From contig CAVAVT010000004.1 in the NCBI GenBank assembly GCA_963592185.1, positions 15 to 64,014 of the forward strand: a DNA stretch of 64,000 nucleotides. The letters run 5' to 3'. The first letter of the stretch is position 1. Each line of letters begins with the position of its first letter. The translations under genes and the position numbers were made by a program. Of the stretch, positions 18,601 through 59,772 are shown one piece after another. The notes under the pieces are model-generated. The model ran no database searches. It was not told where the DNA came from and saw nothing but the letters and a program-made list of their open reading frames with translations. Source of the stretch: a bacterium. Its GTDB lineage: Bacteria; Bacillota; Negativicutes; Selenomonadales; Selenomonadaceae.

Positions 18601-21600
18601 TCAAAGCTGCCTTACTGTGCCCTTTCCCAAAAGATTTTCAAGGGCTGCAACAGCCTCATCACAGCCGTCAATCCAGTATTCTGGCTGGGTCTTTACAAGC
18701 TGTCTCTTCTCAACCATGTGAAGATATACTGTTCTATCTCCGTGATGGGCATAAAAAATCTTTTTCAGCTCATCATAGTTTTCCTTATTTGCCTTCTCGC
18801 CCCTAATTTCGATATAAACCTCCGGCTGATAGCTTTCCAATGGACATACTTTTTCAGCAATGAGCTTTGCTCCATCGTCTGTGTTATCCACCCGGCCCTC
18901 AATCATCAAGGCTGTGTCAGGCACCAAAGCATTAACATGCTCGTAGAAAACCTTTGGGAAAACAATGACTTCTATGCTGTGGGTAAAATCCTCCAGTACA
19001 GCAAAACACATGGTGTCGCCTTTTTTAGTTGATGTACGTCGGGCGGAAGCCAGAAGACCTCCTATTCGCACACGTTTTCTATCTGGAAGCTTTCCCTCCA
19101 GAAGCTCTGAAATAGGAGTAAAATTCCGTATTATATCCGCATAATCATCCAAGGGATGCCCCGTGATATAGAACCCGGTAATTTCCTTTTCCCACTCCAG
19201 TCTGGTGGCTGTGTCCGCCTCCGGAATATCTGGAAGCACAATATCGTCCGCCGTCCCCATAGTATCCTCGGTGAAAAGTCCTATCTGTCCAGAGGCTGCA
19301 TCCTTCTGCACCAATGCTGCCGCATCCACAGCCTGTGGAAGCACAGCCAAAAGCTGCGTTCTCTTTGCACCTAAGGAATCAAAGGCTCCGCACTTTATAA
19401 GATTCTCCACCACTCTTTTGTTCATGGTGTGCATATCCGCCCTATTGCAAAAATCCGACAGGGATTTAAATGGACCGCCATCCTTCCTGGTCTGTTCCAT
19501 TTTCTCAATGGCTGCTTCTCCCACATTCTTTATTGCTGCAAGTCCGAAGCGGACAGCATCCCCATCCACACTGAAGGAGGCTGAGCTGGCATTGATATCC
19601 GGCGGCAGTATTTTTATTCCCATGCGGCGACATTGCTCGATATACACCGCAACCTTGCCATTTGTATCCATTACGCTGGTAAGCATTGCAGCCATAAACT
19701 CCTGTGGATAATGTGCCTTTAGGTAGGCTGTCTGCCAAGCTACATATGCATATGCAGCACTGTGGGACTTGTTAAAGCCATAATCCGCAAAATGAGTCAG
19801 CAAATCAAAAATTTTATTTGCCAATTCATCATCTATTCCATTTTCCTTTGTCCCCTTAAGGAAATTTTCCTTTTGAGCCATAAGGATTTCATGCTTCTTT
19901 TTTCCCATGGCACGGCGAAGCAAATCCGCCTGTCCCAGGCTGAATCCTGCCAGTACCTGCACAATCTGCATTACCTGCTCCTGATAAAGAACCACTCCAT
20001 ATGTTTCCTTCAGGATTGGCTCCAAAAGCGGATGCATGTAGGTAACAGTCTTTTTCCCATGCAGACCGTCAATAAAGTCAGTTACCATGCCGCTTCCCAA
20101 AGGTCCGGGACGGTACAGTGCAACTGTAGGAATAAGGTCCGTGAACCCCTTAGGTCTTAAATCCTTTACCAGATTGGTCATTCCCTGGGACTCCATTTGG
20201 AAAACAGCCCCTGTACGGCCCTCGCAAAGCATTTTTGAAGTTTCGCTGTCCTCAAGGGGAATTTTGCTTAAATCAATATCTAAGCCGCGGCTCTGCTTGA
20301 TATTTTTCACACAGTCTGAAAGCACAGTAAGTGTTCTAAGGCCCAGGAAGTCCATTTTCAAAAGCCCCAGTTCCTCAACATGGTCCTTGTCATACTGTGT
20401 AACTAATGTTCCATCCGATACCTGTACCGGGAGGTATTCCGTAAGAGGATCCCTTGCAATAACCACTCCGGCAGCATGGGTTGAAGAATGTCTTGGAAGC
20501 CCCTCCACAGCCCGTGCCAAGTCCACAAGACGCTTTACATCCGGACTGCCTTCATAGGCGGTTCTAAATTCCGAGGAACCCTTAAGAGCCTTATCCAGAG
20601 TCATTCCAAGCTCTGAGGGTATCAGCTTTGCCACCCGGTCCACGTCATTATAGGGCATATCCAGAGCACGTCCCACATCACGGATGGCGCCCTTTGCCGC
20701 CATGGTTCCGAAGGTTACTATCTGTGCTACATGGTCCTCACCATAACGGCGCTTTACGTACTCAATAACCTCCCCACGGCGGATATAGCAGAAATCCACG
20801 TCTATATCTGGCATGGTAACACGCTCTGGATTGAGGAAGCGCTCAAAAAGCAGCGCATACTTTAGGGGGTCTATGTCTGTTATCCCTAAAACATACGCCA
20901 CAATACTTCCGGCAGCGGAGCCTCTGCCCGGCCCCACGGCGATTCCAACACTTCTGGAATAATTTATAAAATCCCACACTATAAGGAAGTAGCTGTCAAA
21001 TCCCATTCTGTGAATGATTCCAAGCTCATAGTCCAGACGTTTTCTAATCTCTGGCGTTATTTCCTCATATCGATCAGCAATCTTTTCCTCGCAAAGCTTT
21101 CTGAGATACATTTCATCCGTCATGCCCTCAGGAAGCGGAAAATTCGGAAGATGTCTGCTGTTGAAGTCGAAGGTTACATTACAGCGTTCGGCAATTTTCT
21201 GGGTATTTGCCAATGCCTCTGGATGCTCTGGGAAAAGCTTTGCCATTTCATCAGGAGATTTTACGTAATAATCGTCACTGTTAAAACGCATCCTATCTGA
21301 ATCGTTCATTGTACGGCCCGTCTGAATGCACAAGAGAACCTCATGGAACTCACTGTCTTCACGCTTTAAATAATGGGCATCATTTGTAACAACCAAGCCC
21401 ACATCGTATTTTTCAGCCAATTCAATAAGTCCCTGGGAAGCCTTTTCCTCCTCCGGAAGACCATGCTTCTGAATTTCTATAAAGAAATTTTCCCTGCCAA
21501 AAATATCAATGTATTCCTCTACAGCCAAAGCCGCCCCTTCAGGATTATCTCTGAGGAGCATTTGCGGAACTTCCCCAGCTATACATGCCGAAAGACAGAT

Positions 21601-22026
21601 TATGCCCTTGTGGTACTTTCGTAAAAGCTCCTTGTCAACACGGGGCTTGTAATACATTCCCTCAATATTTGCCAGGGATACAAGCTTCACAAGATTTCTG
21701 TATCCTTCATTATTTTCAGCCAGCAGTATTAGGTGGTAATACCTAGTTCCATTCACTTCAAAATTATCGTGTCGTGAGGCTGGAGCGAGATAAACCTCGC
21801 AGCCAATGATTGGGCGGATGCCCTCCTTTACCGCAGCCTTGTAAAAATCTATAACTCCGTACATATTGCCATGGTCCGTTATTGCCACAGAATCCATTCC
21901 CATGGCCTTTACCTGCTGGATCAGCGGTTTTATCCTGTTAGCACCATCCAGCAGACTGTACTCAGTATGAACATGCAGGTGGGCAAAGGGAATATTGCCC
22001 TGATTTACAGTTTCCATATTCTTCAT
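18601..22026 (-). CDS. dnaE: DNA polymerase III alpha subunit, DnaE type
   Basis: PHP 'FAHLHVHTEYSLLDG', palm/fingers and an OB fold. The ATG at 22026 (MKNMETVNQG...) is preferred. The 40-aa upstream extension of the raw ORF looks non-coding. Confidence 0.95.
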   Translation of the reverse strand: MKNMETVNQGNIPFAHLHVHTEYSLLDGANRIKPLIQQVKAMGMDSVAITDHGNMYGVIDFYKAAVKEGIRPIIGCEVYLAPASRHDNFEVNGTRYYHLILLAENNEGYRNLVKLVSLANIEGMYYKPRVDKELLRKYHKGIICLSACIAGEVPQMLLRDNPEGAALAVEEYIDIFGRENFFIEIQKHGLPEEEKASQGLIELAEKYDVGLVVTNDAHYLKREDSEFHEVLLCIQTGRTMNDSDRMRFNSDDYYVKSPDEMAKLFPEHPEALANTQKIAERCNVTFDFNSRHLPNFPLPEGMTDEMYLRKLCEEKIADRYEEITPEIRKRLDYELGIIHRMGFDSYFLIVWDFINYSRSVGIAVGPGRGSAAGSIVAYVLGITDIDPLKYALLFERFLNPERVTMPDIDVDFCYIRRGEVIEYVKRRYGEDHVAQIVTFGTMAAKGAIRDVGRALDMPYNDVDRVAKLIPSELGMTLDKALKGSSEFRTAYEGSPDVKRLVDLARAVEGLPRHSSTHAAGVVIARDPLTEYLPVQVSDGTLVTQYDKDHVEELGLLKMDFLGLRTLTVLSDCVKNIKQSRGLDIDLSKIPLEDSETSKMLCEGRTGAVFQMESQGMTNLVKDLRPKGFTDLIPTVALYRPGPLGSGMVTDFIDGLHGKKTVTYMHPLLEPILKETYGVVLYQEQVMQIVQVLAGFSLGQADLLRRAMGKKKHEILMAQKENFLKGTKENGIDDELANKIFDLLTHFADYGFNKSHSAAYAYVAWQTAYLKAHYPQEFMAAMLTSVMDTNGKVAVYIEQCRRMGIKILPPDINASSASFSVDGDAVRFGLAAIKNVGEAAIEKMEQTRKDGGPFKSLSDFCNRADMHTMNKRVVENLIKCGAFDSLGAKRTQLLAVLPQAVDAAALVQKDAASGQIGLFTEDTMGTADDIVLPDIPEADTATRLEWEKEITGFYITGHPLDDYADIIRNFTPISELLEGKLPDRKRVRIGGLLASARRTSTKKGDTMCFAVLEDFTHSIEVIVFPKVFYEHVNALVPDTALMIEGRVDNTDDGAKLIAEKVCPLESYQPEVYIEIRGEKANKENYDELKKIFYAHHGDRTVYLHMVEKRQLVKTQPEYWIDGCDEAVAALENLLGKGTVRQL

Positions 22027-22097
22027 TACCCCTTTCAGCAGACAGATAATATAAGTATAACATTTTACAGCCCTATGTGCGATAGTCTCTGCCATAT

Positions 22098-22138
22098 AAA
22101 AAAGACAGGAGCACGGCACTGAGTACCAATCTCCTGTC
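22098..22138 (-). terminator. Rho-independent terminator of rnj
   Basis: GACAGGAG/CTCCTGTC stem followed by a U-run on the minus strand. Confidence 0.75.
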
Positions 22139-22155
22139 TTCTTCACGAAGGCAAA

Positions 22156-39371: not shown

Positions 39372-41726
39372 TTAGTTATTTTTCTCTGCAGCTGCATTGA
39401 TATCCTCAATAGAAGTCTCAACCTCTTCCATTGTGTAGGCCTCAATGATATCACCTGCACGGAAATCACGGTAATCTTTAATGGTAATTCCGCATTCAAA
39501 TCCGGAAGCTACTTCCTTCACATCATCCTTGAAACGGCGAAGTGAATCAAGCTCTCCATCGAATACTTCGATATTGTCACGGACAATACGAATCTTGGAA
39601 TCACGGGTAATCTTGCCTTCAAGAACATAGGAACCAGCAACCAAAACCTTGTTGAAGCTCATAACCTGACGGATTTCAACCTTGCCCAGCTGAACTTCCT
39701 TGTACTTAGGTGCAAGCATACCTGTCATAGCAGCCTGTACATCGTTCATTACGTCATAGATTACACGGTAGGTGCGTATATCAACCTGTTCATTATCTGC
39801 AACCTTACGGGCATTTGCATCCGGACGTACATTGAACGCAATGATAAGAGCGTTGGATGCTGAAGCCAGCATAACATCGGACTCATTAACGGCACCTACA
39901 CCAGAGTGAACGATGCTTACACGAACCTCGTCATTCTTATTAAGCTTCAGGAGGGAGCTGGAAAGTGCCTCTACAGAGCCCTGTCCATCAGCCTTGATAA
40001 CGATGTTGAGATCCTTAATGCTTCCTGCCTGAATCTGCTGGAAGAGGTCGTCCAGAGATACCTTTTTGGAGCGGATAAGCTCGTTGCGCTTGCGCTCAAT
40101 ACGCTTTTCAGCAATCTGGCGTGCAAGTTTCTCGTCCAATGCTGCAAGCTCATCACCGGCATCTGGAACATCATTAAGACCAAGTACCTCTACAGGAACG
40201 GAAGGACCAGCCTTCTTCACATTCTCTCCACGGTCGTTGACCATTGCACGAACCTTTCCGTAGGTAGTACCAGCAAGAATGGAATCACCGATTCTAAGGG
40301 TACCGTTCTGTACAAGAACAGTTGCTACAGGACCACGGCCCTTGTCCAGCTGTGCCTCTACGATTACACCACGGGCGGAACGCTTCGGATTTGCCTTGAG
40401 TTCCCTCATCTCAGCTACGAGGAGAACCATTTCCAGAAGGTCGTTAATACCGATTTTCTGCTTTGCAGAAATAGGAACCATAATGGTGTCTCCGCCATAT
40501 TCCTCAGGAATAAGCTCATACTGCATGAGTTCTTCCTTTACATGGTCAGGATTTGCACCAGGCTTATCGATTTTGTTGATAGCAACAATGATAGGCACAC
40601 CTGCGGACTTTGCGTGGTGGATAGCCTCGATGGTCTGGGGCATAACACCGTCATCTGCTGCAACTACGAGAATTGCAATATCTGTTATCTGTGCACCACG
40701 TGCACGCATTGCGGTAAATGCCTCATGTCCAGGGGTATCAAGGAATACAATCTTCTTGCCGTTGCAATTTACCTGGTATGCACCGATGTGCTGGGTGATA
40801 CCGCCGGCCTCCTGAGAAGTTACAGAAGTCTTGCGGATGGAATCCAGCAATGAGGTCTTACCATGGTCAACATGGCCCATTACAGTAACAACAGGAGGTC
40901 TGAGACCAAGCATCTTGGGATCATCATCTACCTCAGGAATCTCTGTAGGATCAACCTCTGGCGGCAGCTCTTCACAGGTTACGCCAAATGCATCCGCAAC
41001 CAAGGAAGCTGTATCAAAATCGATTTCCTGGTTGATGGTAGCCATTCCGCCCAGTGCAAACAACTTTCCGATTACCTCTGCAGCAGTGCGGCTCATCTTG
41101 CTTGCCAAATCCTTAACAATGATGGTTTCACCAATCTTTATATGTGTAGGACGTGCAATCTCTGCCTTTGGAGCCTGCTGAGGCTGGTTGCGGTTCTTCT
41201 TGTTATTGCGGTTGTTACGGTTCTTGCCGCCGTTAAAGCCGCCATTGAATCCGCCCTTGCCATTACGGTTGCTGCGGTCATTTTTTCCATTTCCGTTATT
41301 GCGGTCATTGCGGTTGTTGGAATTGTGTCCGCCAGCCTGCTGAGGTCTGTTTCCCTGCTGACCGTTGTTATGGTTGTGCTGAGGCTTGCCATTGTTCTGC
41401 GGTCTGGAATTGCTGCGCTGTTCCCCATTGGCAGGTCTCTGAACCTTTGCATGATCCTGGGTGGTCTTTGATGCGGTATCTGCATGTTTATGCACTGCAG
41501 CTGCCTTAGTTTCAGTTTTTGCCGGCTCCTGCTTCTTTACAGCTGGAGTTTCAGCCGCCGGCTTGCTCTTGTTGTACTTTTCGGAGATAAGCTTGGCTGC
41601 GCTATCATCCACAACTGACATATGATTCTTTATATTATCGTATCCTTTGCTCTTAAGAAAATTAATGATTTCCTTACTGTCTGCGTTATTTTCCTTCGCT
41701 AATTCATAAATTCTATGTTTAGACAT
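39372..41726 (-). CDS. infB: Translation initiation factor IF-2
   Basis: G domain 'GHVDHGKTS', 'DTPGHEAF' and 'NKID'. The ATG at 41726 follows a GGGGG RBS. The 13-aa upstream extension is rejected. Confidence 0.95.
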
Positions 41727-41740
41727 CAATCTACCCCCGA

Positions 41741-42085
41741 TTACTTCTCCATAGCACCAATCCATTTCTCCAGGCCCTTTGCAAACCCGGTGTCAAGAAT
41801 CGCTGCAGCTGCCCGAAAATCTTTTCCCAGGCTGTGTCCCAGCTTTTCCCTTGTTAAAATACAATGAACAGGCACTCCATACTCCCCAGCCTTTTTCAAA
41901 TACTCGTCTTTAGTATCCTTTGCAGCATCCTCAGCTACAATAAGCAGGCTGGCCTTATTACTTTCTAAAGCCTTCATTACGGCGAAATTTCCTGACGCTG
42001 CCTTATTTGCCCGCTGAGCAAGTCCCAGCAGATTCAAAATCTTTTTTTCAGACAGCATACGTTCTATATCAAGCTTTGTGGCCAT
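41741..42085 (-). CDS. ylxQ: L7Ae/L30e-family RNA-binding protein (YlxQ-like)
   Basis: About 114 aa, located between ylxR and infB as in Bacillus. '[14 protein letters not shown]..' resembles the L7Ae fold. Confidence 0.8.
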
Positions 42086-42365
42086 CGCTTATTCCTTCTG
42101 CTGTCATCAGCTCAGCCTTCAGCTTTTCATATATATCCTTGTCAATGGCACTCTTAAATGAACGTTCAAATCCATGGCCCTTGACAGCCTTTTCAAAGCA
42201 TTCCTGCTTACGGCATATATAGGCTCCACGTCCGGATTTCTTTCCGGTAAGGTCCATTGAAAAATCTCCCTCAGGGCTTCTTACAATCCTGATGAGTTCT
42301 CTCTTTGGATGGACCTCATGGCAGCCAATACACATGCGCTCAGGCACCTTTTTTCTGACAGCCAT
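42069..42365 (-). CDS. rnpM: YlxR/RnpM family protein (DUF448)
   Basis: 'KKVPERMCIGCHEVHPKRELIRIV' and 'GRGAYIC' signature. The ATG at 42365 lies 1 nt after the nusA stop. Confidence 0.85.
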   Translation of the reverse strand: MAVRKKVPERMCIGCHEVHPKRELIRIVRSPEGDFSMDLTGKKSGRGAYICRKQECFEKAVKGHGFERSFKSAIDKDIYEKLKAELMTAEGISDGHKA

Positions 42366-42366
42366 A

Positions 42367-43515
42367 TTACTCGACCTCGTCTCCAGAGGTATAGTTATCA
42401 TCTTCAAAGTCATTTATGATATCCATATCCTCATAGCCTTCAGCCTCAGCCTGGGATTCGCTCTTAATGTCGATTTTCCAACCTGTAAGCTTTGCAGCAA
42501 GTCTTGCATTCTGACCTTCCTTGCCGATTGCAAGTGAAAGCTGGGTATCAGGAACCACAACTCTGGAGATTTTCTCTTCTTCATTTGCGCTTACTGAAAT
42601 AACCTTTGCAGGGCTAAGAGCGTTGGCGATGTACTTTGCAGGATCCTCGTTCCACTTAACGATATCGATTTTCTCGTTGCGGAGCTCGTCTACAATAGCC
42701 TGAACACGAAGACCCTTATGACCTACGCAGGAGCCAACAGGATCAACAGCCTCATCAGAAGAATATACAGCAATCTTTGAACGCATTCCCGGCTCTCTGG
42801 CTACAGACTTGATTTCAACTATTCCCTCCTGAATCTCAGGAACCTCCAGCTCAAAGAGTCTCTTCAAAAGTCCCGGATGTGTTCTGGAAACAACAATCTG
42901 CGGACCCTTGGAGGTCTTTTTAACCTCTACGATAAACGCCTTTATACGCTCTCCATGCTGATATTCCTCTCCAGGAATCTGTTCGTTGGGACTGAGAACA
43001 GCCTCTGTGCGGCCAAGGTCGATAAATACGGTTTTCCCCTCGATGCGCTGAACAACACCTGTGATGATATCGCTTTCACGGTTGGAGAATTCATCATAAA
43101 TGATTCCACGCTCAGCTTCACGGATGCGCTGAACAACAACCTGCTTTGCATTCTGTGCTGCAACACGTCCGAAATCCGCCGGTGTAACCTCTATCTCGAT
43201 GGTATCACCCACCTCGTAGTCAGGGTTAATCTTGCGTGCTTCTGCCAGAGACATCTCAGTAACCTCATTTTCAGGCTCCTCAACGATATCCTTAATAGCA
43301 TACACGTGATATGCACCAGTTACACGGTCAAGGGATACTCGAACGTTCTGCTCTGAGCTGTTGCGCTTATATGCAGAAACCAATGCTGCCTCTATTGCAT
43401 CAAAGAGAACCTCTGTATCAATTCCCTTTTCCTGTCCTATTTCACGGAAAGCCTCCATGAATTCCTTTGCCTTGTTCTGTTCCTTTGATTTTGTCTTCAG
43501 TCTTCTAGTAGCCAA
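42367..43515 (-). CDS. nusA: Transcription termination/antitermination factor NusA
   Basis: N-terminal domain plus S1 plus two KH domains ('IGKEGQNARLAAKLTGWKIDI'). The TTG start lies 9 nt after AGGAGG. Confidence 0.95.
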   Translation of the reverse strand: MATRRLKTKSKEQNKAKEFMEAFREIGQEKGIDTEVLFDAIEAALVSAYKRNSSEQNVRVSLDRVTGAYHVYAIKDIVEEPENEVTEMSLAEARKINPDYEVGDTIEIEVTPADFGRVAAQNAKQVVVQRIREAERGIIYDEFSNRESDIITGVVQRIEGKTVFIDLGRTEAVLSPNEQIPGEEYQHGERIKAFIVEVKKTSKGPQIVVSRTHPGLLKRLFELEVPEIQEGIVEIKSVAREPGMRSKIAVYSSDEAVDPVGSCVGHKGLRVQAIVDELRNEKIDIVKWNEDPAKYIANALSPAKVISVSANEEEKISRVVVPDTQLSLAIGKEGQNARLAAKLTGWKIDIKSESQAEAEGYEDMDIINDFEDDNYTSGDEVE

Positions 43516-43541
43516 AATCCTAATCCTCCTATTCCTATATA

Positions 43542-43985
43542 TCAGAAATCTATGTGTAAACGCACCTGTGCAATCTTTTCAAGTGCAATACTTCTGTCTT
43601 CTAAAATAAGCTCGCTGTCGCTTTTACCCTCAAGTACGCCCACGATGAGCTTTTCTCCATCAATAGGTGCATAAAGCGTAACATCGACCTTTTTTCCCTT
43701 TTCACGGACAAAATCCTTATCTTTTTTCAAAACTCTGTCCAAGCCCGGGGAGGAAACCTCCAGTATATAACTATCCTGTATAATATCCTTTTTATCCAGG
43801 ACCTCTTCAACTTTTTCACTGAGCTGCTGGCAGTCATCTATCTCAATGCCGCCCTCCTTGTCAATGAATATGCGCAAATACCAATCATGCTCTTTGACGT
43901 ATTCTACATCCACAAGCTCAAGCCCGGTTCCCTGAAGAAATTCTTCAGCAATAGCCGCAACGGCTTCTTCAATTCGATTTGCCAT
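43542..43985 (-). CDS. rimP: Ribosome maturation factor RimP
   Basis: 'LELVDVEY...LRIFIDKEGGI..DDC' and 'LEVSSPGLDR' motifs. The ATG at 43985 follows GGAGG. Confidence 0.9.
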   Translation of the reverse strand: MANRIEEAVAAIAEEFLQGTGLELVDVEYVKEHDWYLRIFIDKEGGIEIDDCQQLSEKVEEVLDKKDIIQDSYILEVSSPGLDRVLKKDKDFVREKGKKVDVTLYAPIDGEKLIVGVLEGKSDSELILEDRSIALEKIAQVRLHIDF

Positions 43986-44026
43986 ATGACGCCTCCTTCT
44001 TCCCAATAATTTCAGATATAAATGTA

Positions 44027-44118: not shown

Positions 44119-47100
44119 CTACATAAATAACGCCATTTGGTCACTTTCATCCATTCCAGCAAGACATCCATGACGACGAAGGGCGTCAATTGCTGTTCGA
44201 GACGCTCCAGTGCGTTTCTTCATATTCTCAATGGAGCTGAACTCTCCGTCCTTTCGTCCTTCGGCTATGGCATTGGCATCAGATCCGCCTATGCCGTTAA
44301 GGGATGTAAGGGGCGGAAGCAGCGATTTCTCATGAATAATGAATTTTGTCGCATCAGAATTGTAAAGGTCAACATGTTCCATGGTATATCCTCTAAGATA
44401 CATTTCCCATGCCAGCTGAAGAACAATCAATAATTCCTTCTCCTTGTCCTCCGGCTTATCCTTTGCCTCGATTTCCTGAATACGTTCATGAACATGCTCC
44501 TTGCCCTGGGCAATTATGTCCGCATCAAAGGCATCCGCACGAATAGAAAAATACGCCGCATAAAATGCTAATGGATAATGCACTTTGCAGAATGCTATGC
44601 GGTAGGCCATCATTACATACGCCGTTGCATGTGCTCTCGGGAAAAGATATTTTATCTTCTGACAGGCTTCAATATACCATTCCGGGATACCGCCCTTGCG
44701 AAGAATCTCCACCACATCGTCAGAGATTCCCTTTCCCTTACGAACCTTCTCCATGGTCTTAAAGGCCAAGAGAGGCTCTATTCCATTGTGGATGAGATAC
44801 ATCATTATATCGTCACGGGCGGAAATTGCATCGTGCAGTGTACACTGTCCATTTCTGATAAGTTCCTGGGCATTGCCCAGCCATACGTCAGTACCATGGG
44901 AAAAACCTGATATACGCACCAAATCACTAAAGCATGCCGGATGAGTATCATCTATCATCTGTCTTGTAAAGCTTGTTCTAAACTCCGGTATGCCGAAGGT
45001 TCCAGAATTAGCCCCCAGCTCCTCCGGTGTAACACCCAAAGCCTCGGTTGATGAAAAAATACTTAAAGTGGCCGGATCATCAAAAGGTATGGTCTGGGGA
45101 TCCCTATGAGTGAGATCCTCCAGCATCTTGATAACTGTCGGATCATCGTGTCCAAGTATATCCAGCTTTACAAGTCGGCTGCTGATGGAATGGTAATCAA
45201 AATGGGTGGTTATTGTGGCTGATGTCTTATCATCCGCCGGATGCTGTATCGGGGTAAAGAAGTGCACATCCATATCCCTTGGAACTACCATGATTCCAGC
45301 AGGATGCTGGCCAGTGGTGCGCTTTACGCCCTGACAGCCCCTTGCCAGCCTGTCGATGTACGCCTCACGCTTCTTTATGCCCTTTTCCTCAAAAAACTTT
45401 TTCACATAGCCATATGCGGTTTTATCCGCAACTGTGGCAATTGTTCCTGCACGATACACGTTGTCCTTGCCGAAAAGCACCTCGGTGTACTTGTGGGCGG
45501 TGGGCTGATATACACCGGAAAAGTTTAGGTCGATATCTGGAACCTTGTCACCGTCAAAGCCCAAAAATACCGCAAACGGTATATCGTGTCCATCCTTAAC
45601 TAATGGTGTATCGCATACTGGGCATTTCTTATTGGGAAGGTCATATCCGCAGCCCACGGAACCGTCCGTTACAAATTCGCTGTATTTGCAATGAGGGCAT
45701 CTATAATGCGGCGGAAGCGGATTAACCTCTGTTATTCCTGTCATGGTAGCGATAAACGAGGAGCCTACAGAACCTCGTGAGCCTACCAAATAGCCATCGT
45801 CCATGGATTTTTTTACAAGTCTCTGGGCAATGAGATACAGCACGGAAAATCCGTGATTTATGATTGGCGTCAGCTCCTGAGTGAGCCTGTCAGTAACAAT
45901 CTTTGGAAGATTTTCTCCATAAAGCTCCTTTGCCTTGCCATAGGACATTTCACGTATCTCATCATCCGCTCCGGGAATCATGGGAGAATACAAATCATCC
46001 GGTATTGGCTTGAACTTCTCCACACTGTCACTTATCATTCTGGGATTTGTAATAACCGCCTCATGGGCCAGCTCTTCCCCAAGATATTCAAACTCCCGAA
46101 GCATTTCCTCCGTGGTGCGCAGATAAAGTGGGGGCTGAAGCTCCGCATCCTCAAACCCCTTGCCCTTCATTAAAATAGCTCGGTATATGGAATCCTCCGG
46201 ATTGAGGAAATGCACATCGCAGGTTGCCACAAGGGGCTTCTTCAGACGCTTTGCCAGCTCTGCAACCTTCAGGTTGATTTTTTTCAAATCCTCATCAGTC
46301 TGTATGTGTGGAAATTCCTCGCTACGGACCAAAAATTCATTATTTCCAATAGGCTGAATCTCCAAGTAGTCATAAAACTCGGCTATTTTCACAAGTTCCT
46401 CATCCGACTGTCCTGCCACAATAGCACGGATAAGCTCCCCGGCCTCACAGGCGGAGCCAACGATAATGCCCTCCCTGTACTCCTCTATAAGCCATCTTGG
46501 AAGCCTTGGCTGACGGTGAAAATAACGAAGATGGGAAATAGATACCATGTGGTAGAGATTTCTAAGACCTCGTGGATTCTTTGCCAGAAGGATGATATGG
46601 TTTGCACGCTTTTGTTCGTAGTCATCCCCAACCAGATACCCCTCCATGCCGTAGATAACCTTGATATCCAGCTTGCCATACTCCAGGGTATTCATTGCAT
46701 CTGGAAATGCCTGCACTACGCCATGGTCTGTTACAGCAATGGAATCCCATCCCCAACGGGCCGCAGTCTTTATCAAATCCTTCACTGACACCACCGCATC
46801 CATGTTGCTCATGTGGGTATGGGCATGGAGCTCCACACGCTTTACTTCCGCATTATCCTCACGAACTTTGGGTGTCAGCTTGCTGGCACTTCTTGCCATC
46901 ATTGTAAAATCATTGGAAAACTTGTCGAACTGAACCGAACCAAAAATCTTTAACAGCATTCCATCCTTCAGGCTTCCAAGAAGTGCCTCATATTCTTCTT
47001 TTTCCTTAATGAAGGTTTTGCATGTAATTCCATCTGAATCGTCAGCAAGATTAAATGTAATAAGATTTGTCTTTGCAAATTCAAAGCCCTTAACACCGGC

Positions 47101-47874
47101 AATATATCCAGAAAGAACAATATTTCTCGCTTCTCCATCCAAATCGCTGATAGAAACTGGGTCTCCCGATACACCCTTTCCAAAAAGCAAGGAGGTAGAA
47201 CCCTCTGGAACAGCCACTTTCCTTTCCTGCGGCTTTCCTGACGAGATAGATTTTTTTGCTGGCTCTCTTTCCGGCTTCTTTTCCTGAGCCGCCCGCACAG
47301 CCTGCCGATACTCCGGTGTCATATAAGCTTCCTGATCTGTAATCTGTGGAAGTACATCCCCTTCTTCATCCACCGCATTAAATTCAACCTGACAGCCATA
47401 CCCCAGCTTTTCTTCCATTGCCTTCTGCATAAGCTGAGGCACCGCATGGGCCCTTAAAAGCTCTCCAGCAAGACCTCCACGGACCTTCACTATGACATGA
47501 ATGCCATCTATTTCCTTTTCTGCATTAGAAAGAAGCAGTCTGAGCATGGGCTTCCCATTTGACACCTGAGCCACAAGCTCATTCCAGACCGCTTCTACAG
47601 ATTCCTCAAAGGCTGTTACATCCTGATAAAATTTCACTCCGGTAATATTGCATTTTTTACATATGTATTCCCCTGCACGGCCTAAAAGCTCCTGACCGAT
47701 AAGCTGCCTGGTCTCAAGCAGCATCTCCCAGGAATTTTCCTTTAGCGAAATCTCCACATGCTTAATGACACAGGCACGAAACATGTCCTTTTCCGCCCTG
47801 GACATTTCAAGCCCTTTTACCATCTGCCAGAAAACATTGCCTTTTTCGGGGATAATACAATACTTTTCCATCAT
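44119..47874 (-). CDS. polC: PolC-type DNA polymerase III alpha subunit lacking the internal DEDD 3'-5' exonuclease domain
   Basis: PolC N-terminal domain and OB fold. PHP 'VELHAHTHMSNMD'. Zn finger 'CPHCKYSEF..CPVCDTPL'. Palm motifs 'LVGSRGSVGSS', 'PDIDLNFSG' and 'TTGQHPAG'. Canonical position upstream of rimP-nusA. Only 1251 aa, and the PHP halves abut at '..YGMEGYLVGDDYEQKRANHIILLA..'. Confidence 0.9.
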   Translation of the reverse strand: MMEKYCIIPEKGNVFWQMVKGLEMSRAEKDMFRACVIKHVEISLKENSWEMLLETRQLIGQELLGRAGEYICKKCNITGVKFYQDVTAFEESVEAVWNELVAQVSNGKPMLRLLLSNAEKEIDGIHVIVKVRGGLAGELLRAHAVPQLMQKAMEEKLGYGCQVEFNAVDEEGDVLPQITDQEAYMTPEYRQAVRAAQEKKPEREPAKKSISSGKPQERKVAVPEGSTSLLFGKGVSGDPVSISDLDGEARNIVLSGYIAGVKGFEFAKTNLITFNLADDSDGITCKTFIKEKEEYEALLGSLKDGMLLKIFGSVQFDKFSNDFTMMARSASKLTPKVREDNAEVKRVELHAHTHMSNMDAVVSVKDLIKTAARWGWDSIAVTDHGVVQAFPDAMNTLEYGKLDIKVIYGMEGYLVGDDYEQKRANHIILLAKNPRGLRNLYHMVSISHLRYFHRQPRLPRWLIEEYREGIIVGSACEAGELIRAIVAGQSDEELVKIAEFYDYLEIQPIGNNEFLVRSEEFPHIQTDEDLKKINLKVAELAKRLKKPLVATCDVHFLNPEDSIYRAILMKGKGFEDAELQPPLYLRTTEEMLREFEYLGEELAHEAVITNPRMISDSVEKFKPIPDDLYSPMIPGADDEIREMSYGKAKELYGENLPKIVTDRLTQELTPIINHGFSVLYLIAQRLVKKSMDDGYLVGSRGSVGSSFIATMTGITEVNPLPPHYRCPHCKYSEFVTDGSVGCGYDLPNKKCPVCDTPLVKDGHDIPFAVFLGFDGDKVPDIDLNFSGVYQPTAHKYTEVLFGKDNVYRAGTIATVADKTAYGYVKKFFEEKGIKKREAYIDRLARGCQGVKRTTGQHPAGIMVVPRDMDVHFFTPIQHPADDKTSATITTHFDYHSISSRLVKLDILGHDDPTVIKMLEDLTHRDPQTIPFDDPATLSIFSSTEALGVTPEELGANSGTFGIPEFRTSFTRQMIDDTHPACFSDLVRISGFSHGTDVWLGNAQELIRNGQCTLHDAISARDDIMMYLIHNGIEPLLAFKTMEKVRKGKGISDDVVEILRKGGIPEWYIEACQKIKYLFPRAHATAYVMMAYRIAFCKVHYPLAFYAAYFSIRADAFDADIIAQGKEHVHERIQEIEAKDKPEDKEKELLIVLQLAWEMYLRGYTMEHVDLYNSDATKFIIHEKSLLPPLTSLNGIGGSDANAIAEGRKDGEFSSIENMKKRTGASRTAIDALRRHGCLAGMDESDQMALFM

Positions 47875-47942: not shown

Positions 47943-48896
47943 TTAGAATTTTCTTGAAGAGGAAAGCTTTTGTATAGCCAGAGGAACCACCACAAATATA
48001 TAAAAATTAATCATTCCATAGAACAGTATATTCGTAGTGACTTTTCCCAACACAGGCTTTGCAATTGCAGAGAAATACATACACCACAAAATCATTGGAA
48101 TAAATGCCACAATTGAAATTATTATCCCCTTAGTCTTATCTGAAGGATTCTCAAAGCCAATAAACTGTTTCTCAATAAACCAGGCAATCAGGGTAATTGC
48201 CATAACTCCCACAGAAACCAGCCCGTCAACAGACATTTTTACCGGATCCACTAAAAGCTTTCCATCCACATAATCTATTGGGTAGGGCTTGTACATGATA
48301 TACAGTCCGGAAAGTGCAATAATAATGAGTCCAAATACCAGCACCTTAATATCCCTTGTGGAATCTCCTTGCTGCATCCATTTAAAAAGCTTCATATTGC
48401 CAATAATGATAAGCAGCGAAATACCAAAACCAAATACAACATCCTGTGGAGTATGCACACCCAGATAGTTACGGGAAAGCATGACTAAAAGACCTAAAAG
48501 AATAAACATTGCTGTAAGCAAAAACTTTTTATGCTTGTGAGCCAGCACCGCAAAGCTTCCATAATATATCGCCGCCCTTGTACTATGTCCGCTGGGGAAT
48601 GAATACCCTGTAGCTGTCTTTATTGCATCCCCTGCCGGAGTTATTGCCGCATCACGAATCCATGGGCGATAAACGCAGGCTGTAAGCTTTGCTATTCCAT
48701 TAAACCATGAACAGAGGGCCGAATTCATCACCATCCATCCGCCTATAGACTTGCTGAAAGTCCAATAAATCAGCGCTATGAGAAACATCCATATAGGAGT
48801 TTCCACGGTCTTTGTCATAAAAAAGAAAAAAGGCGTAAGTACATTGTCTGTACTCTCTCTCAGCCCCTGTAAAAAAAGAAGATATTGCAAGTCCAT
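47943..48896 (-). CDS. PAP2-family membrane phosphatase
   Basis: Three PAP2 motifs: 'KLTACVYRPW', 'SFPSGHS' and 'SRNYLGVHTPQD'. Multi-TM. Confidence 0.8.
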   Translation of the reverse strand: MDLQYLLFLQGLRESTDNVLTPFFFFMTKTVETPIWMFLIALIYWTFSKSIGGWMVMNSALCSWFNGIAKLTACVYRPWIRDAAITPAGDAIKTATGYSFPSGHSTRAAIYYGSFAVLAHKHKKFLLTAMFILLGLLVMLSRNYLGVHTPQDVVFGFGISLLIIIGNMKLFKWMQQGDSTRDIKVLVFGLIIIALSGLYIMYKPYPIDYVDGKLLVDPVKMSVDGLVSVGVMAITLIAWFIEKQFIGFENPSDKTKGIIISIVAFIPMILWCMYFSAIAKPVLGKVTTNILFYGMINFYIFVVVPLAIQKLSSSRKF

Positions 48897-49026: not shown

Positions 49027-50898
49027 TTATTTATGCCATTTTAAAAGAAACGAAGAATTTATGATTACCAGTACAGAACCGGCATTATGCACCAATGCAC
49101 CAACAATCGGATTCAAAATTCCAGCTATTGCTAGGATTATAGCAATAAAATTCAATCCCATGGAAAAAGTCATATTCCACTTAATAGTGGTCATCATACG
49201 TCTGGAAAGTGCCACTAGGTGTGGTAGCTCCTCAAGGTCATCATTTACCAGTACAATGTCCGCTGCATCCACCGCAATATCGCTGCCGATTCCTCCCATT
49301 GCCATTCCCACAGTAGCACGCTTTAATGACGGAGCATCGTTTATTCCATCTCCAATCATACATACAGGACAATCCGCCTTTTCGCATTTATCGATATATT
49401 CAAGTTTATCCTCCGGCATACATTCCGCCTTGTAATTGGGTATTCCCAGTATCTTCGCTATACTGGCTGCTGCATTTTTATGATCCCCAGTCAGAAGGAC
49501 AGTATCCAGCGCAAGGGATGTGAGCTTTGAAAGCATTTTCCGGCTCCCATCTCGAACCACGTCTGACAGTGCAATATATCCGGAAAACTCCTTATCCACA
49601 GACACATAAATGACCGTGCTGCCTTGAGCATAAAAATCATCGATTTCCGGAACCTCTTTAATAAAAATATCATTTTCTGTCATAAGCTTGAGATTTCCTG
49701 CAAAAATTTTTCTGCCATTAATCTCTCCCATTACGCCACGTCCTACCAGCATTTTAAAGTTGTCGCATTTCACCATGCTCTTTTTAAGAATTTCAGCATA
49801 AGATGAGGAAATTGCCTGTCCTATGGGATGTTCTGATAACCCTTCTACCGCAGCTGTATAGGAAAAAATTTCTTCATCGGTATATTTATCTGAAATACTC
49901 TTAAATGCTGCCACACTAAGCTTTCCATAGGTCAGCGTACCTGTCTTGTCAAAAGTAACAGTCTTAACCTTCGACAGCCGCTCAAGGGCATCACCTTCAC
50001 GAACAAGAAAACCATGCTTTGTGGCATTTCCTATGGCTGCCATAATGGCTGTGGGTGTAGCCAAAACCAATGCACAGGGGCAGAAAACAACCAGTATTGT
50101 TACAGCTCTGATTATCTCCCCAGTATAAAGCCAGGTCAGTGCCGCCGCTGTGAGGGCTATTACCACAATCCAGGTGGCCCATTTATCCGCCAGCCTTACA
50201 ATTTTTGCCTTATCAGCGTCTGCAGACTGTACCAGCCTTATCATTCGCTGAATTGAGCTGTCCTCGCCAACCTTTGTAGCTTTCATCAAAAATGCGCCAA
50301 ACTGGTTGACAGTGCCACTTGAGACCTCGTCACCTTCCGATTTATCCACCGGCAGGGATTCTCCTGTCATTACAGATTGATTAATGGATGTCTGCCCGGA
50401 AATAATCAGCCCGTCCACCGGAATACTTTCCCCCGGCAGAACCCTGATAAAATCTCCCTTTTCCACCTGCTCTGCTGGAACTATTCTTTCAGTGTCATTT
50501 TCAACGATTCTTGCGGTCTGTGGCGTGAGCTTAACTAGCTTCTCTATTCCGGCTCTTGCCTTCGCTACCGTCAAATCCTCCAGCAAGGCTCCAATTTGCA
50601 TGATGAATGCAACCTCGCCAGCTGCAAAATCCTCACCTATGCAGATGGAAGCTATCAATGCCAGAGAAACTAATACATCCGCCTTAATGTCAAATTCAGT
50701 AATCAGACCAATTACAGCCTCCATGATTATAGGTACGCCGCAAAGAATAATTGCTATCCAAGCAGCATTAAATGGTAGTTCAATAATACCTGTCAGGCTT
50801 ATAAAAAGGGCTATTCCAGAAATCACAAGAAATGCAATATCCTTTTTTACTCCCCCAATTTCCATAATGCTTTCGATTTTCTCTATAAATGTATCCAT
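49027..50898 (-). CDS. Heavy-metal-translocating P1B-type ATPase without an N-terminal metal-binding domain
   Basis: 'MTGESLPV', 'CPCALVLATP', 'DKTGTLT' and 'GDGINDAP'. No CxxC/HMA domain. The ATG at 50898 follows AGGAGAAGGG. Confidence 0.9.
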   Translation of the reverse strand: MDTFIEKIESIMEIGGVKKDIAFLVISGIALFISLTGIIELPFNAAWIAIILCGVPIIMEAVIGLITEFDIKADVLVSLALIASICIGEDFAAGEVAFIMQIGALLEDLTVAKARAGIEKLVKLTPQTARIVENDTERIVPAEQVEKGDFIRVLPGESIPVDGLIISGQTSINQSVMTGESLPVDKSEGDEVSSGTVNQFGAFLMKATKVGEDSSIQRMIRLVQSADADKAKIVRLADKWATWIVVIALTAAALTWLYTGEIIRAVTILVVFCPCALVLATPTAIMAAIGNATKHGFLVREGDALERLSKVKTVTFDKTGTLTYGKLSVAAFKSISDKYTDEEIFSYTAAVEGLSEHPIGQAISSSYAEILKKSMVKCDNFKMLVGRGVMGEINGRKIFAGNLKLMTENDIFIKEVPEIDDFYAQGSTVIYVSVDKEFSGYIALSDVVRDGSRKMLSKLTSLALDTVLLTGDHKNAAASIAKILGIPNYKAECMPEDKLEYIDKCEKADCPVCMIGDGINDAPSLKRATVGMAMGGIGSDIAVDAADIVLVNDDLEELPHLVALSRRMMTTIKWNMTFSMGLNFIAIILAIAGILNPIVGALVHNAGSVLVIINSSFLLKWHK

Positions 50899-50914
50899 AT
50901 TCCCTTCTCCTTTC

Positions 50915-50965
50915 ATACCCTATAGGGTATAGGTATATAATACATATAGGGGTATAGGTTGTCAA
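50915..50965 (-). promoter_or_regulatory. ATPase promoter with CsoR-type operator
   Basis: Minus strand TTGACA (50965-50960), 17 nt, TATTAT (50942-50937). The perfect palindrome ATACCCTATAGGGTAT (50915-50930) lies just downstream of the -10. A related TATACCCCTATA sits inside the spacer. Confidence 0.55.
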
Positions 50966-51381: not shown

Positions 51382-52584
51382 TCAGAACTTAACAGTAATA
51401 ATTGTTCCTTCCCCAACTATGCTGTCCACCTCCAGCTTGGCATTATGAAGCTTCGCTGCATGCTTTACGATAGACAATCCAAGTCCTGTGCCGCCCACTT
51501 CCTTGGAATGGCTTTTATCCACCCGGTAGAACCGTTCAAATATCCGCCCCTGATCCTTTTCAGGGATTCCAATGCCGGTATCTCTTACAGATACCTGTGG
51601 ATGTCCTGAATTTTCACTGACCTCAATAACCACATTTCCTTCCTTGCGATTATACTTAATTGCATTTTCACAGATATTGTAAATCATGCTGTGCAAAAGC
51701 TGCGGAATCCCATCCATCACTACCTGCTGTCCAATAAGTTCCATGGAAACCTGATTTTTCTCGGCTGCAGGTGTAAGGCTTGTAATTACCCCTTCGGCAA
51801 TCTGATAAAGATTAACCTTGGCCTTCGTAGTATTTTCCTTGCCCTCATCAAGCCTTGAAAGCACGATAATATCCTGAACCAACCTTATCATACGCTGAGC
51901 TTCACTGTATATTTTTTCAGCAAAAACTGAAATATCATCAGGCTGTACAATGCCGTTCTTCAGAAGTTCCGCATAGCCGGATATGGAATGCAGCGGTGTC
52001 TTAAGCTCATGGGACACATTGGCCGTAAATTCCCGGCGCATTGCCTCGCTTTCCTCCTGATTTGCTTTCTTTGTTTCCTTTGCTGAAATAACCACAGAAA
52101 TAACAATTACCACCAGAAGAATAATTCCTATTGGAATGCCAACATCCCAGATAACCCTTAAAACCGTATGCTGTGGCATACTGACCCTAAGCACAGAGCC
52201 GTCCTCTAGCCTTTGGGCGGAATACAGCATTCTGGTCATCATTGTTCCTGAGTAGCGCTGGCTCTCTCCATAGCCGTAATTAACGGCCTGTCGGACCTCT
52301 TCGCGGGCCATATGATTTTCCATTTCCCCGCTGTCCGCATCACTATCATATAAAATATTTCCCTTGCTGCTAATCCAGGTTATACGGTAATTTCCCTTTG
52401 AAAGTTCCTCCAAGTAACTTTTGCCCTGACTGATTACCGCAAGCCCCGTCATTTCCGTTTCTGTCCTTAGCTGCTGCCTCTGAACCCCGGCGAAATAACT
52501 GTACATCGTAACCATAATCAAAGCACTGGCCGCAATAAAAGCCACCAGTGCTGTTGTCACAATGACGAAATATCTGTTATGCAT
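51382..52584 (-). CDS. Sensor histidine kinase (PhoR-like by context)
   Basis: Two TM segments flank a periplasmic domain of about 130 aa. H-box 'SHELKTPL'. HATPase 'DTGIGIP' and 'GTGLGLSIVK'. The ATG at 52584 overlaps the regulator stop by 8 nt. Confidence 0.85.
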   Translation of the reverse strand: MHNRYFVIVTTALVAFIAASALIMVTMYSYFAGVQRQQLRTETEMTGLAVISQGKSYLEELSKGNYRITWISSKGNILYDSDADSGEMENHMAREEVRQAVNYGYGESQRYSGTMMTRMLYSAQRLEDGSVLRVSMPQHTVLRVIWDVGIPIGIILLVVIVISVVISAKETKKANQEESEAMRREFTANVSHELKTPLHSISGYAELLKNGIVQPDDISVFAEKIYSEAQRMIRLVQDIIVLSRLDEGKENTTKAKVNLYQIAEGVITSLTPAAEKNQVSMELIGQQVVMDGIPQLLHSMIYNICENAIKYNRKEGNVVIEVSENSGHPQVSVRDTGIGIPEKDQGRIFERFYRVDKSHSKEVGGTGLGLSIVKHAAKLHNAKLEVDSIVGEGTIITVKF

Positions 52585-53263
52585 GTGGAACCTCCAAACG
52601 GTATCCCACACTCCTTACGGTTTTTATGGCCTTTCCCCATTCTCCCAGACGTGTTCTAAGACTGCTGATATGTACGTCAACAGTACGGGTTTCCCCCATG
52701 TAATCCATATCCCACACATTGGAAAGGAGTTTTTCCCTAGTGAAAACAATGCCTGGATTCTCAGCAAACAGCCTTAGCATCTCAAATTCCTTAAGCGGCA
52801 TTTCCACTTCTCTGCCTTCCACCGTCACAATGTGCTGATTCAAATTAATGGCAACATTACCGAAGGTCAGAATTCCATCCTTTGTTTCAGCTGCATCTTC
52901 CTGAGTTCGCCTCAGCACCGCCCTGATTCTTGACACCATTTCCATCATGCCGAAGGGTTTTGCCAGATAATCGTCAGCCCCAGAGTCAAGACCCATTACT
53001 TTGTCATACTCAGTGCCCTTTGCTGTAGCCATAATCACAGGGATTTTCTTTGTATCTGAATTGGTCCTGAGCCTTTTTAAAATGCTCATGCCATCCTCCC
53101 CGGGAAGCATTATATCCAGCATAATAAGATCTGGCTTTTTCCCTTCCATGGCAAGCCAGAATTCAGTAGAATCCGGAAACCCCTTGCCCTCGAAGCCTGA
53201 AGCCTTCAAAGTGTACAGCATCAATTCCCTAATGCTGTCATCATCCTCTACACAATAAATCAT
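52577..53263 (-). CDS. OmpR/PhoB-family response regulator (PhoP-like by context)
   Basis: Receiver domain (DD..., 'IMLDIMLPGEDG') plus winged helix 'VDVHISSLRTRL'. The ATG at 53263 lies 6 nt after GGAGGTG. Confidence 0.9.
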   Translation of the reverse strand: MIYCVEDDDSIRELMLYTLKASGFEGKGFPDSTEFWLAMEGKKPDLIMLDIMLPGEDGMSILKRLRTNSDTKKIPVIMATAKGTEYDKVMGLDSGADDYLAKPFGMMEMVSRIRAVLRRTQEDAAETKDGILTFGNVAINLNQHIVTVEGREVEMPLKEFEMLRLFAENPGIVFTREKLLSNVWDMDYMGETRTVDVHISSLRTRLGEWGKAIKTVRSVGYRLEVPHA

Positions 53264-53330
53264 CAGCGCCACCTCCGCCTAAAATCTCCCTTGCTTGCAG
53301 TGTAACACCTCAGCATTTAAAAGACAAATT

Positions 53331-56451: not shown

Positions 56452-56477
56452 AAGAAACCCTCCATTTTGTCGTTATT

Positions 56478-56527
56478 TAAAAAATCTCCCCTCCAATGCA
56501 TTAATGCACTGGATAGGAGATTTTTAC
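56478..56527 (-). terminator. Terminator after phoU (long imperfect hairpin)
   Basis: ATCTCC..TCC..TGCAT / ATGCA..GGA..GGAGAT, flanked by an A-run and a T-run. Confidence 0.7.
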
Positions 56528-56555
56528 CATATATACCTATCGAAAATTCGATATT

Positions 56556-57967: not shown

Positions 57968-57979
57968 TCATTCCATATC

Positions 57980-59757: not shown

Positions 59758-59772
59758 GGTTCATAAGCTCCT

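Follow-up and report, generated by a model that had tools for sequence, protein, structure and literature searches.

The question raised by this locus is how the replicative DNA polymerase PolC corrects its errors once the exonuclease domain that is built into the canonical enzyme has been lost. Proofreading by the replicase sets the mutation rate, and antibiotics such as ibezapolstat are directed at PolC. The stretch analysed here, called the window in the following, comprises 64,000 nucleotides of contig CAVAVT010000004.1 from a bacterium of the Selenomonadaceae (Negativicutes). It encodes a PolC-type DNA polymerase III alpha which has no DnaQ-like DEDDh exonuclease, the hallmark of canonical PolC, but retains all nine metal ligands of its PHP (polymerase/histidinol phosphatase) domain. 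Judged from sequence comparisons, PHP-based proofreading in cis is the most likely mechanism in the Selenomonadaceae PolC. The gene and its parts are as follows.

44119..47874, minus strand: polC, PolC-type DNA polymerase III alpha, naturally without the exonuclease domain (exo-less), 1251 amino acids plus stop codon, no interruption
47155..47874, minus strand: PolC N-terminal domain including the NII subdomain, about residues 1-240 (Pfam DNA_pol3_a_NII at 97-209; aligns with the N-terminus of 9qpc)
46885..47115, minus strand: OB fold, residues 254-330 (Pfam tRNA_anti-codon with E=1.3e-4, under the gathering cutoff; aligns with the OB domain of 3f2b)
46642..46842, minus strand: N-terminal part of the PHP domain, residues 345-411, with H350, H352, D359, H384 and E411 (Pfam PHP at 348-501, 1.3e-30)
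46600..46641, minus strand: junction hairpin GYLVGDDYEQKRAN, residues 412-425, at the site of the about 200-residue DEDDh exonuclease of canonical PolCs
46015..46599, minus strand: C-terminal part of the PHP domain, residues 426-620, with H426, C476, D553 and H555 (alignments to the PHP domains of Thermus aquaticus (Taq) and G. kaustophilus)
44731..45960, minus strand: polymerase core (palm, thumb, fingers), residues 639-1048 (Pfam DNA_pol3_alpha 3.5e-55, DNA_pol3_finger 2.2e-22)
44146..44388, minus strand: tandem helix-hairpin-helix (HhH) module, residues 1163-1243 (Pfam HHH_6 2.3e-9)
44125..44139, minus strand: C-terminal QMALF, residues 1246-1250, fitting the beta-clamp-binding consensus QxxLF

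The protein was identified as a PolC by profile and structure-based alignments. It scored 1530.6 bits with the NCBIfam PolC equivalog NF001688 (cutoff 873), the match being split in two with a second stretch in which query residues 417-1250 correspond to profile positions 607-1444, and 1393 bits with TIGR01405 (cutoff 1043), and it aligned to the G. kaustophilus PolC 3f2b with 1196 bits across residues 245-1250. The Pfam matches follow each other in the order NII (97-209), OB (254-330), PHP (348-501), pol3_alpha (639-908), finger (911-1048) and HHH_6 (1163-1243). Together with the alignments to 3f2b and 9qpc these yield the PolC-specific arrangement of an N-terminal domain and an OB fold ahead of the PHP domain, followed by the polymerase core and the C-terminal HhH module. 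The initial annotation had described an uninterrupted open reading frame (ORF) of 1251 residues with a series of PolC motifs, and every one of these motifs was located where expected. VELHAHTHMSNMD is found at residues 347-359, LVGSRGSVGSS at 696, PDIDLNF at 779 (within PDIDLNFSG), TTGQHPAG at 853, GHDDP at 908, and the Zn finger strings CPHCKYSEF and CPVCDTPL at 726 and 751 with the cysteines C726/C729/C751/C754; of these, PDIDLNF and GHDDP are the catalytic-type motifs. As far as sequence alone can tell, the catalytic motifs, the Zn finger and the C-terminal Q..LF are near-invariant across the PolC family alignment. Among 121 homologs 53% of the columns of the polymerase core are invariant, and in the N-terminal domain there are zero invariant columns.

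The absence of the exonuclease domain was supported by every approach used. Pfam detected no RNase_T or other DEDD family in the protein even at E<=1, the profile scan that had been proposed with the initial annotation thus giving a PHP domain and no RNase_T in this ORF, and no ETTG-like string occurs anywhere in the PolC ORF. In the alignment to the full-length PolC 9qpc, query residues 8-418 correspond to 23-432 and query residues 415-1250 to 630-1471, which leaves about 197 amino acids of 9qpc with no counterpart. A custom hidden Markov model (HMM) was built from 97 exonuclease inserts of PolCs, and detects 108 sequences of the representative set described below. When it was run against the six frames of the 64-kb window nothing was found, the best match having E=0.46. 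An exonuclease hidden within the gene or split off from it into the window was rejected on account of these two empty searches, the Pfam scan at E<=1 and the HMM scan of all six frames.

The two halves of the PHP domain are joined at about nt 46603-46632 according to the initial annotation, and this junction is indeed contained in the linker at nt 46600-46641, which spans the interval from E411 to H426. Alignment to 9qpc and 3f2b agreed with a clean excision, the gap being confined to the linker site. Apart from the linker, the PHP domain of the window PolC aligns gap-free to that of 3f2b, and the GSGSG linker which was engineered in 3f2b sits at the site of the natural junction. An AlphaFold2 model of residues 339-625 (pLDDT 76.6, pTM 0.80) shows the junction as a strand-loop-strand hairpin. 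In Foldseek comparisons this model reached TM-scores of 0.72-0.78 with PolC PHP domains (0.72 with 3f2b) and of 0.6-0.68 with the PHP domains of the DnaE proteins of Taq, Mycobacterium tuberculosis (Mtb) and E. coli (0.65-0.68 with Taq and Mtb).

The nine PHP ligands of the window PolC correspond one-to-one with those of Taq Pol III alpha: H350, H352, D359, H384, E411, H426, C476, D553 and H555, in short HHDHEHCDH. Two of the positions are flagged by the D to N substitutions of the PHP-inactivated entry 3e0d. All nine had been called canonical in the initial annotation, which named their loss on proper alignment as evidence against PHP proofreading; the alignment keeps all nine, and they are invariant in 121/121 sequences (the query and 120 homologs). 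In a 2026 survey of bacterial polymerases the signature of an active PHP domain is given as HHDHEH[C/H]DH. The eighth position is of particular interest. It is occupied by Asp in the window PolC (ATCDVH) and by Asn in the PolCs of G. kaustophilus and 9qpc (ATGNVH), and D553 of the window PolC corresponds to D226 of Mtb DnaE1, where the D226N mutant is exonuclease-dead (PMC5636811). G. kaustophilus PolC has been reported to be without PHP exonuclease activity, which is attributed to the Asn at the position equivalent to D226 (PMC5636811). C476 of the window PolC is the counterpart of C670 in G. kaustophilus and C669 in C. thermocellum.

The exo-less form proved to be a property of the whole clade and not of one assembly, as a survey of orthologs, likewise proposed at the outset, made clear. 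None of the 120 closest database homologs (120/120; about 60-97% identity, 999-1328 amino acids; named genera Selenomonas, Mitsuokella, Anaerovibrio and Propionispira) carries an RNase_T domain, and the spacing from E411 to H426 is 15 in 119/121 sequences. No record matches the window PolC exactly. As 35% of the PHP columns are invariant in the alignment of 121 sequences, a random draw of nine PHP columns would consist of invariant ones alone with a probability of about 7e-5. A locus scan in which each species was represented by a single genome gave 80 loci, and each of these (80/80) has a PolC of exo-less length. The genera represented are Selenomonas, Mitsuokella, Propionispira, Pectinatus, Schwartzia, Massilibacillus and Pelosinus (57% identity), and one of the sequences is the complete S. 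sputigena ATCC 33150 chromosome. Since the junction is common to 119 of the 121 independent database sequences and 80 independent assemblies hold a PolC of exo-less length, an assembly collapse and a pseudogene are excluded. The view that this gene is the resident replicase and neither a fragment nor a collapse, expressed in the initial annotation, is thus borne out by the intact ORF and the clade-wide junction, and the window PolC is taken from these comparisons to be the resident functional replicase and not a fragment, a paralog or an assembly collapse. The canonical context claimed for the gene also agreed with the NCBIfam matches, which extend immediately downstream of polC as follows.

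39372..44006, minus strand: rimP-nusA-rnpM(ylxR)-ylxQ-infB

The full order from polC is polC-rimP-nusA-rnpM(ylxR)-ylxQ-infB-rbfA-nrnA-truB-ribF. Among the related loci rimP-nusA-rnpM adjoins polC downstream in 15/80 only (for example in Propionispira, Massilibacillus, Pelosinus and the metagenome-assembled genome OY782746), and the neighbours of polC differ in S. sputigena, S. bovis, Pectinatus and Mitsuokella. The canonical locus is therefore not conserved family-wide.

An exo-less PolC is not a new finding. Timinskas et al. (2014, NAR 42:1393; PMC3919608) described such enzymes and tabulated their 9/9 PHP motifs, so that an exo-less PolC with a full PHP set has already been known since 2014, and the proteins are routinely annotated as PolC. 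In that work PolCs without the exonuclease (Exo) domain are treated as PolC variants and not as a separate family. They account for 6% of all PolCs and 16% of the PolCs in systems with PolC and DnaE1, and are restricted to Clostridia and Negativicutes, bar one extra copy in Thermotogae. Bacteria with an exo-less PolC always pair it with DnaE1, and the PHP metal site of their PolC is conserved (PMC3919608). The PolC of Acidaminococcus fermentans, another member of the Negativicutes, is listed in the supplementary table with N-terminal domain, OB, PHP, Pol3 and HhH, 1191 amino acids, HHDHEHCDH (9/9) and a C-terminal QIELF; C-terminal clamp motifs tabulated for PolC are QIELF, QLSFF and QITFF (PMC3919608). 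The window PolC shares with this subgroup the domain order without Exo, the 9/9 HHDHEHCDH motif, the C-terminal clamp motif, the DnaE1 partner and the taxonomic range of Negativicutes and Clostridia. There is no difference in kind, and it represents an ortholog from another species, whose identity to the PolCs of named genomes is about 57-75%. Repeated loss, decayed inserts and a tandem-paralog exception were not analysed in the 2014 paper.

Compared with the canonical PolCs of B. subtilis, S. aureus, G. kaustophilus and E. faecium (structures 3f2b and 9qpc), the window PolC has the same domain order, Zn finger, palm motifs, HhH module, clamp motif and polC-rimP-nusA locus. It differs in lacking the about 200-residue DEDDh domain which these enzymes carry between the 'YG.E' and 'H..LLA' strands, in reading ATCDVH (Asp) in place of ATGNVH (Asn), and in its partner, which is DnaE1 instead of DnaE3. 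Engineered PolCs of S. aureus and G. kaustophilus have had their exonuclease removed at the same loop. The S. aureus construct, in which residues 415-609 were deleted and the N-terminal domain was also removed, had a kpol of 330 s-1 (PMC3656037), and G. kaustophilus PolC without N-terminal and exonuclease domains was crystallised with DNA and dGTP (3F2B). A PolC devoid of the insert can therefore fold, bind DNA and dNTP, and polymerise fast. In contrast to these constructs the window PolC keeps its N-terminal domain, has a conserved hairpin of 14 residues in place of an artificial linker, and has nine of nine PHP ligands as compared to eight of nine in the G. kaustophilus construct.

For the function of the metal site two systems are informative. 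A PHP domain with nine ligands acts as a trinuclear-zinc 3'-5' exonuclease both in Mtb DnaE1 and in the Pol III alpha of Thermus (PMC5636811; Stano et al. 2006, cited after PMC3919608 and bioRxiv 10.1101/2021.07.30.454558). These share with the window PolC the nine metal-ligand residues, the fold and a short loop at the position of the PolC exonuclease, the loop beside the PHP active site having 14 residues in the window PolC, 29 in Mtb and 18 in Taq. Proofreaders of this type have a groove or loop that guides the primer 3' end to the PHP site, and the hairpin of the window PolC is located in the equivalent loop. Mtb DnaE1 and Thermus Pol III alpha do not belong to the PolC subfamily, and for the window PolC such an activity is predicted. 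The second system is C. thermocellum, where the change C669Y in the PHP Cys ligand of PolC raised the mutation rate at least 30-fold, DnaE1 being expressed as well (bioRxiv 10.1101/2021.07.30.454558). Like the source of the window, C. thermocellum has both PolC and DnaE1, and its C669 is equivalent to C476; unlike the window PolC, its enzyme still contains the DEDDh domain, and the mechanism of the mutator is inferred. The mutator nevertheless shows in vivo that the metal site of a PolC PHP domain is of importance for fidelity. In the papers that could be searched no biochemistry on exo-less PolC was found.

The relation between exonuclease loss and the PHP site was examined by searching 1.84 billion cluster representatives, without a profile, with query residues 52-1251, which gave 150 PolCs with about 41-63% identity. 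Each representative was scored for the length of the junction insert, a match to the exonuclease HMM and the nine ligand positions. The full HHDHEHCDH motif was present in 37/40 exo-negative and 60/100 exo-positive PolCs among the 50%-identity representatives (Fisher p=9e-5, uncorrected for phylogeny). When only sequences of >=1100 amino acids were considered the figures were 35/36 for exo-less and 58/101 for exo-containing PolCs, the PHP ligands having decayed in 43/101 exo-containing and in none of the exo-less PolCs that are sole copies. In a rough neighbor-joining tree of the conserved core the exo-less PolCs (named taxa Thermoclostridium sp., 'Clostridia bacterium' and 'Clostridiales bacterium') are scattered amid exo-containing ones with about 18 changes by parsimony, and the junction lengths vary from 12 to 39 residues among exo-less groups. 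Scattered placement and unequal junctions argue for repeated independent losses of the exonuclease and against a single event. Almost all of the closest exo-containing neighbours of exo-less lineages have a complete PHP motif, which identifies the Asp at position eight as ancestral and not as a reversion. A compensatory reversion to Asp particular to exo-less PolCs was accordingly rejected, as most exo-containing representatives of the clostridial type read HHDHEHCDH too. The statement in the initial annotation that exonuclease-containing PolCs read TGNVH thus holds for the form found in Bacilli and does not hold beyond it, 58-60% of the exo-containing representatives carrying Asp.

Two further groups of sequences emerged from this search. 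Seven PolCs (P0136, P0177, P0187, P0198, P0200, P0231 and P0236) have inserts of 143-292 amino acids between the Glu and His ligands of the PHP domain, in which no RNase_T was detected at E<=1 (positive control 1.3e-34), and all seven keep HHDHEHCDH. These mid-size inserts may be degenerating or replaced exonuclease domains. One of the seven shows a decayed 'FVAVSLKTTGED' where FD.ETTG is expected. The other case is P0227, an exo-less PolC of 1178 amino acids with the PHP motif HRSLENTDQ, which directly follows an exo-containing PolC of 1400 amino acids.

L081 (contig ena:ERZ27319752:k141_497749), 1702-9537, plus strand: tandem polC pair, exo-containing copy first, then P0227

P0227 is the only full-length exo-less PolC of the survey with a degenerate PHP motif, and since it is a spare copy it fits the pattern in which exonuclease loss goes along with an intact PHP site. 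Cas12f1/TnpB-like genes flank this tandem locus on both sides.

The window encodes a resident exo-less PolC from which the DnaQ-type exonuclease was lost by an old, clean, in-frame excision, and the reading that we favour, and consider rather likely to be right, is that the PHP domain of this enzyme proofreads in cis. According to this proposal the ancestral clostridial PolC would have had two proofreaders, PHP and DnaQ-type. As HHDHEHCDH is ancestral in the exo-containing PolCs of the clostridial type, the DnaQ-type domain would have been lost from an enzyme that was already redundant. Being dispensable, it would have been lost or have decayed repeatedly, only where the PHP site was intact. 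In the Selenomonadaceae the excision of DEDDh, fixed across the family, has left behind a PHP barrel like that of DnaE1, with a hairpin of 14 residues. PolC works alongside DnaE1, as in all Firmicutes with PolC and DnaE1, and mismatched 3' ends would be removed in cis by a trinuclear-metal 3'-5' exonuclease of the PHP domain as in Mtb DnaE1 and Thermus Pol III alpha. The chances appear evenly balanced for the wider claim that PHP is the sole cis proofreader of exo-less PolCs in general, the DnaQ-type domain, redundant in the clostridial ancestor, having been deleted or having decayed into inserts no longer recognisable on a dozen occasions or so, if not more, and in no case without an intact PHP site. 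The suggestion in the initial annotation that proofreading had moved to the PHP domain was consistent with all tests run and with the C669Y mutator, except for the word moved; with an ancestral PHP motif, retained describes the situation better.

Several points weigh against this reading. PHP exonuclease activity has yet to be shown biochemically for any PolC. Most clostridial PolCs with an exonuclease have just as complete a PHP motif, so that a conserved motif does not mark the exo-less state and could reflect a structural or another catalytic role. The C669Y mutator could arise from destabilisation of the fold instead of loss of a nuclease. In the AlphaFold2 model the first strand, with H350 and H352, is of low confidence, and the association statistics were built on a rough neighbor-joining tree and on sequences that are not independent. 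Finally, the search for DEDDh genes covered the 64-kb window and the flanks of the relatives, so that a DnaQ-like partner may be encoded elsewhere in the genome, as discussed below.

The main rival explanation, unlikely in our view and yet the best of the alternatives, is that PolC has no proofreading of its own. DnaE1 would then do most of the synthesis or edit in trans, supplemented by mismatch repair, and the PHP ligands would serve a structural, metal-folding or pyrophosphatase-type role. The window does contain a second C-family polymerase.

18601..22146, minus strand: dnaE, DnaE1-type Pol III alpha, second C-family polymerase (Pfam PHP, pol3_alpha, finger, HHH_6 and OB)

Its best match in PDB is Taq Pol III alpha with 1001 bits, all nine PHP ligand positions agree, and it is classified as DnaE1 and not DnaE3 by this similarity and the PHP signature, not by a phylogeny. 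At a distance of 22 kb from polC, the gene has RNase J (22156-23820) as its immediate upstream neighbour, and the window thus represents the 'PolC + DnaE1' system of Clostridia and Negativicutes. The listed dnaE ORF opens with a GTG, and the true start (MKNMETVNQGNIPFAHLH) is probably located about 40 codons further in. In addition to this DnaE1 with its 9/9 PHP site in the same window, the explanation can draw on Timinskas et al. (PMC3919608), who raise DnaE1 as the possible main replicase in organisms with PolC and DnaE1, the sole home of exo-less PolCs, on the structural and pyrophosphatase roles documented for E. coli PHP domains, and on the 2026 survey, where proofreading in trans is reported between the two polymerases of B. 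subtilis. What speaks against it is, in the first place, that C669Y, a change of a single PHP ligand, is a mutator of at least 30-fold despite DnaE1 being present and expressed, from which it follows that the fidelity of such a genome depends to a large extent on PolC. The asymmetry by which the PHP site has decayed in exo-containing PolCs and never in sole-copy exo-less ones is not predicted by a purely structural role, and the catalytic and clamp motifs of PolC are strongly conserved.

A weaker rival than compensation by DnaE1 and repair is a DnaQ-like (DEDDh) subunit that has its own gene and associates with PolC, which would make the system a split canonical enzyme analogous to alpha and epsilon of E. 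coli; we regard this as quite improbable. Bacterial proteomes contain on average more than three standalone DnaQ homologs (2026 survey), and mycobacteria are described as using DnaQ as a second proofreader next to PHP. Against such a subunit, neither the 64-kb window nor the 4-kb flanks of polC in the 80 related loci contained an ORF for a DEDDh protein, weak matches resembling Pol I being the only ones, and neither of the two cited published surveys is reported to assign a separate DnaQ subunit to these systems. Such a subunit would also give no reason why only lineages whose PHP site is intact have lost the exonuclease.

Of the weak matches to the exonuclease HMM in the related loci the best had E=0.0036 and was located in L022 in an ORF upstream of polC. 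A long ORF upstream of polC with a weak match (E=0.004-0.4) is seen in the S. ruminantium-group loci L022 (2-1954, plus strand), L013, L015 and L016. The match falls on an Exo III-like segment of this ORF, which looks like the part of DNA polymerase I that carries the 3'-5' exonuclease, and the ORF is not the P-type ATPase of the window.

The last alternative takes the missing domain for an artefact, the assembly having collapsed or the gene being a pseudogene or a paralog secondary to a full-length polC elsewhere. The L081 tandem shows, albeit in another organism, that exo-less paralogs are possible in principle. Such an artefact is hardly credible in view of the in-frame junction in 119/121 independent sequences, the 80 assemblies including complete chromosomes, the intact ORF under strong constraint with its 53% invariant polymerase-core columns, the polC-rimP-nusA location, the intact PHP site as opposed to the degenerate one of the L081 paralog, and the single PolC listed for Negativicutes in published genome surveys.

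Other parts of the window may be mentioned briefly. Upstream of polC lies a complete phosphate-regulon block (51382-60612, minus strand) with genes for a phoR-like kinase, phoB, ppk1, ppx, phoU, pstB, pstA, pstC and a phosphate-binding protein, and the interval between this block and polC contains genes for a PAP2 phosphatase (47943-48896) and for a heavy-metal P-type ATPase (49027-50916). No Pfam match at E<=1e-6 was obtained with two ORFs of about 226 amino acids, at 6365-7048 (minus strand) and 62168-62848 (plus strand). Among the housekeeping genes der, plsY, ispH, cmk and aroA, conserved proteins with DUF3737 (E=1.5e-123) and with PDZ, radical-SAM-like and DUF512 regions are encoded at 5407-6270 and 9058-10464, respectively, both on the minus strand.

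As the architecture and the PHP conservation were published in 2014, the value of this analysis lies in confirmation and in a sharper evolutionary pattern rather than in discovery. To the earlier work the survey adds that losses and decays of the exonuclease appear to be many, that they almost always go along with an intact PHP site, and that the single full-length exception is a tandem second copy. A PolC that functions in this state shows the DEDDh domain to be dispensable where the PHP metal site is intact. Exo-less PolCs would offer a clean natural system in which PHP proofreading can be tested in PolC, beyond the DnaE1 enzymes of mycobacteria and Thermus, and they could help to clarify the division of labour in the poorly understood PolC and DnaE1 replisomes of Clostridia and Negativicutes, among them the Selenomonadaceae of gut, rumen and mouth. 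If the wider claim on exo-less PolCs is true, the PolC of the Selenomonadaceae, as a ready natural ΔExo form, would allow PHP proofreading to be demonstrated for the first time in this family, and the intact, decayed and deleted states of the exonuclease would document the replacement of one proofreader by another in progress.

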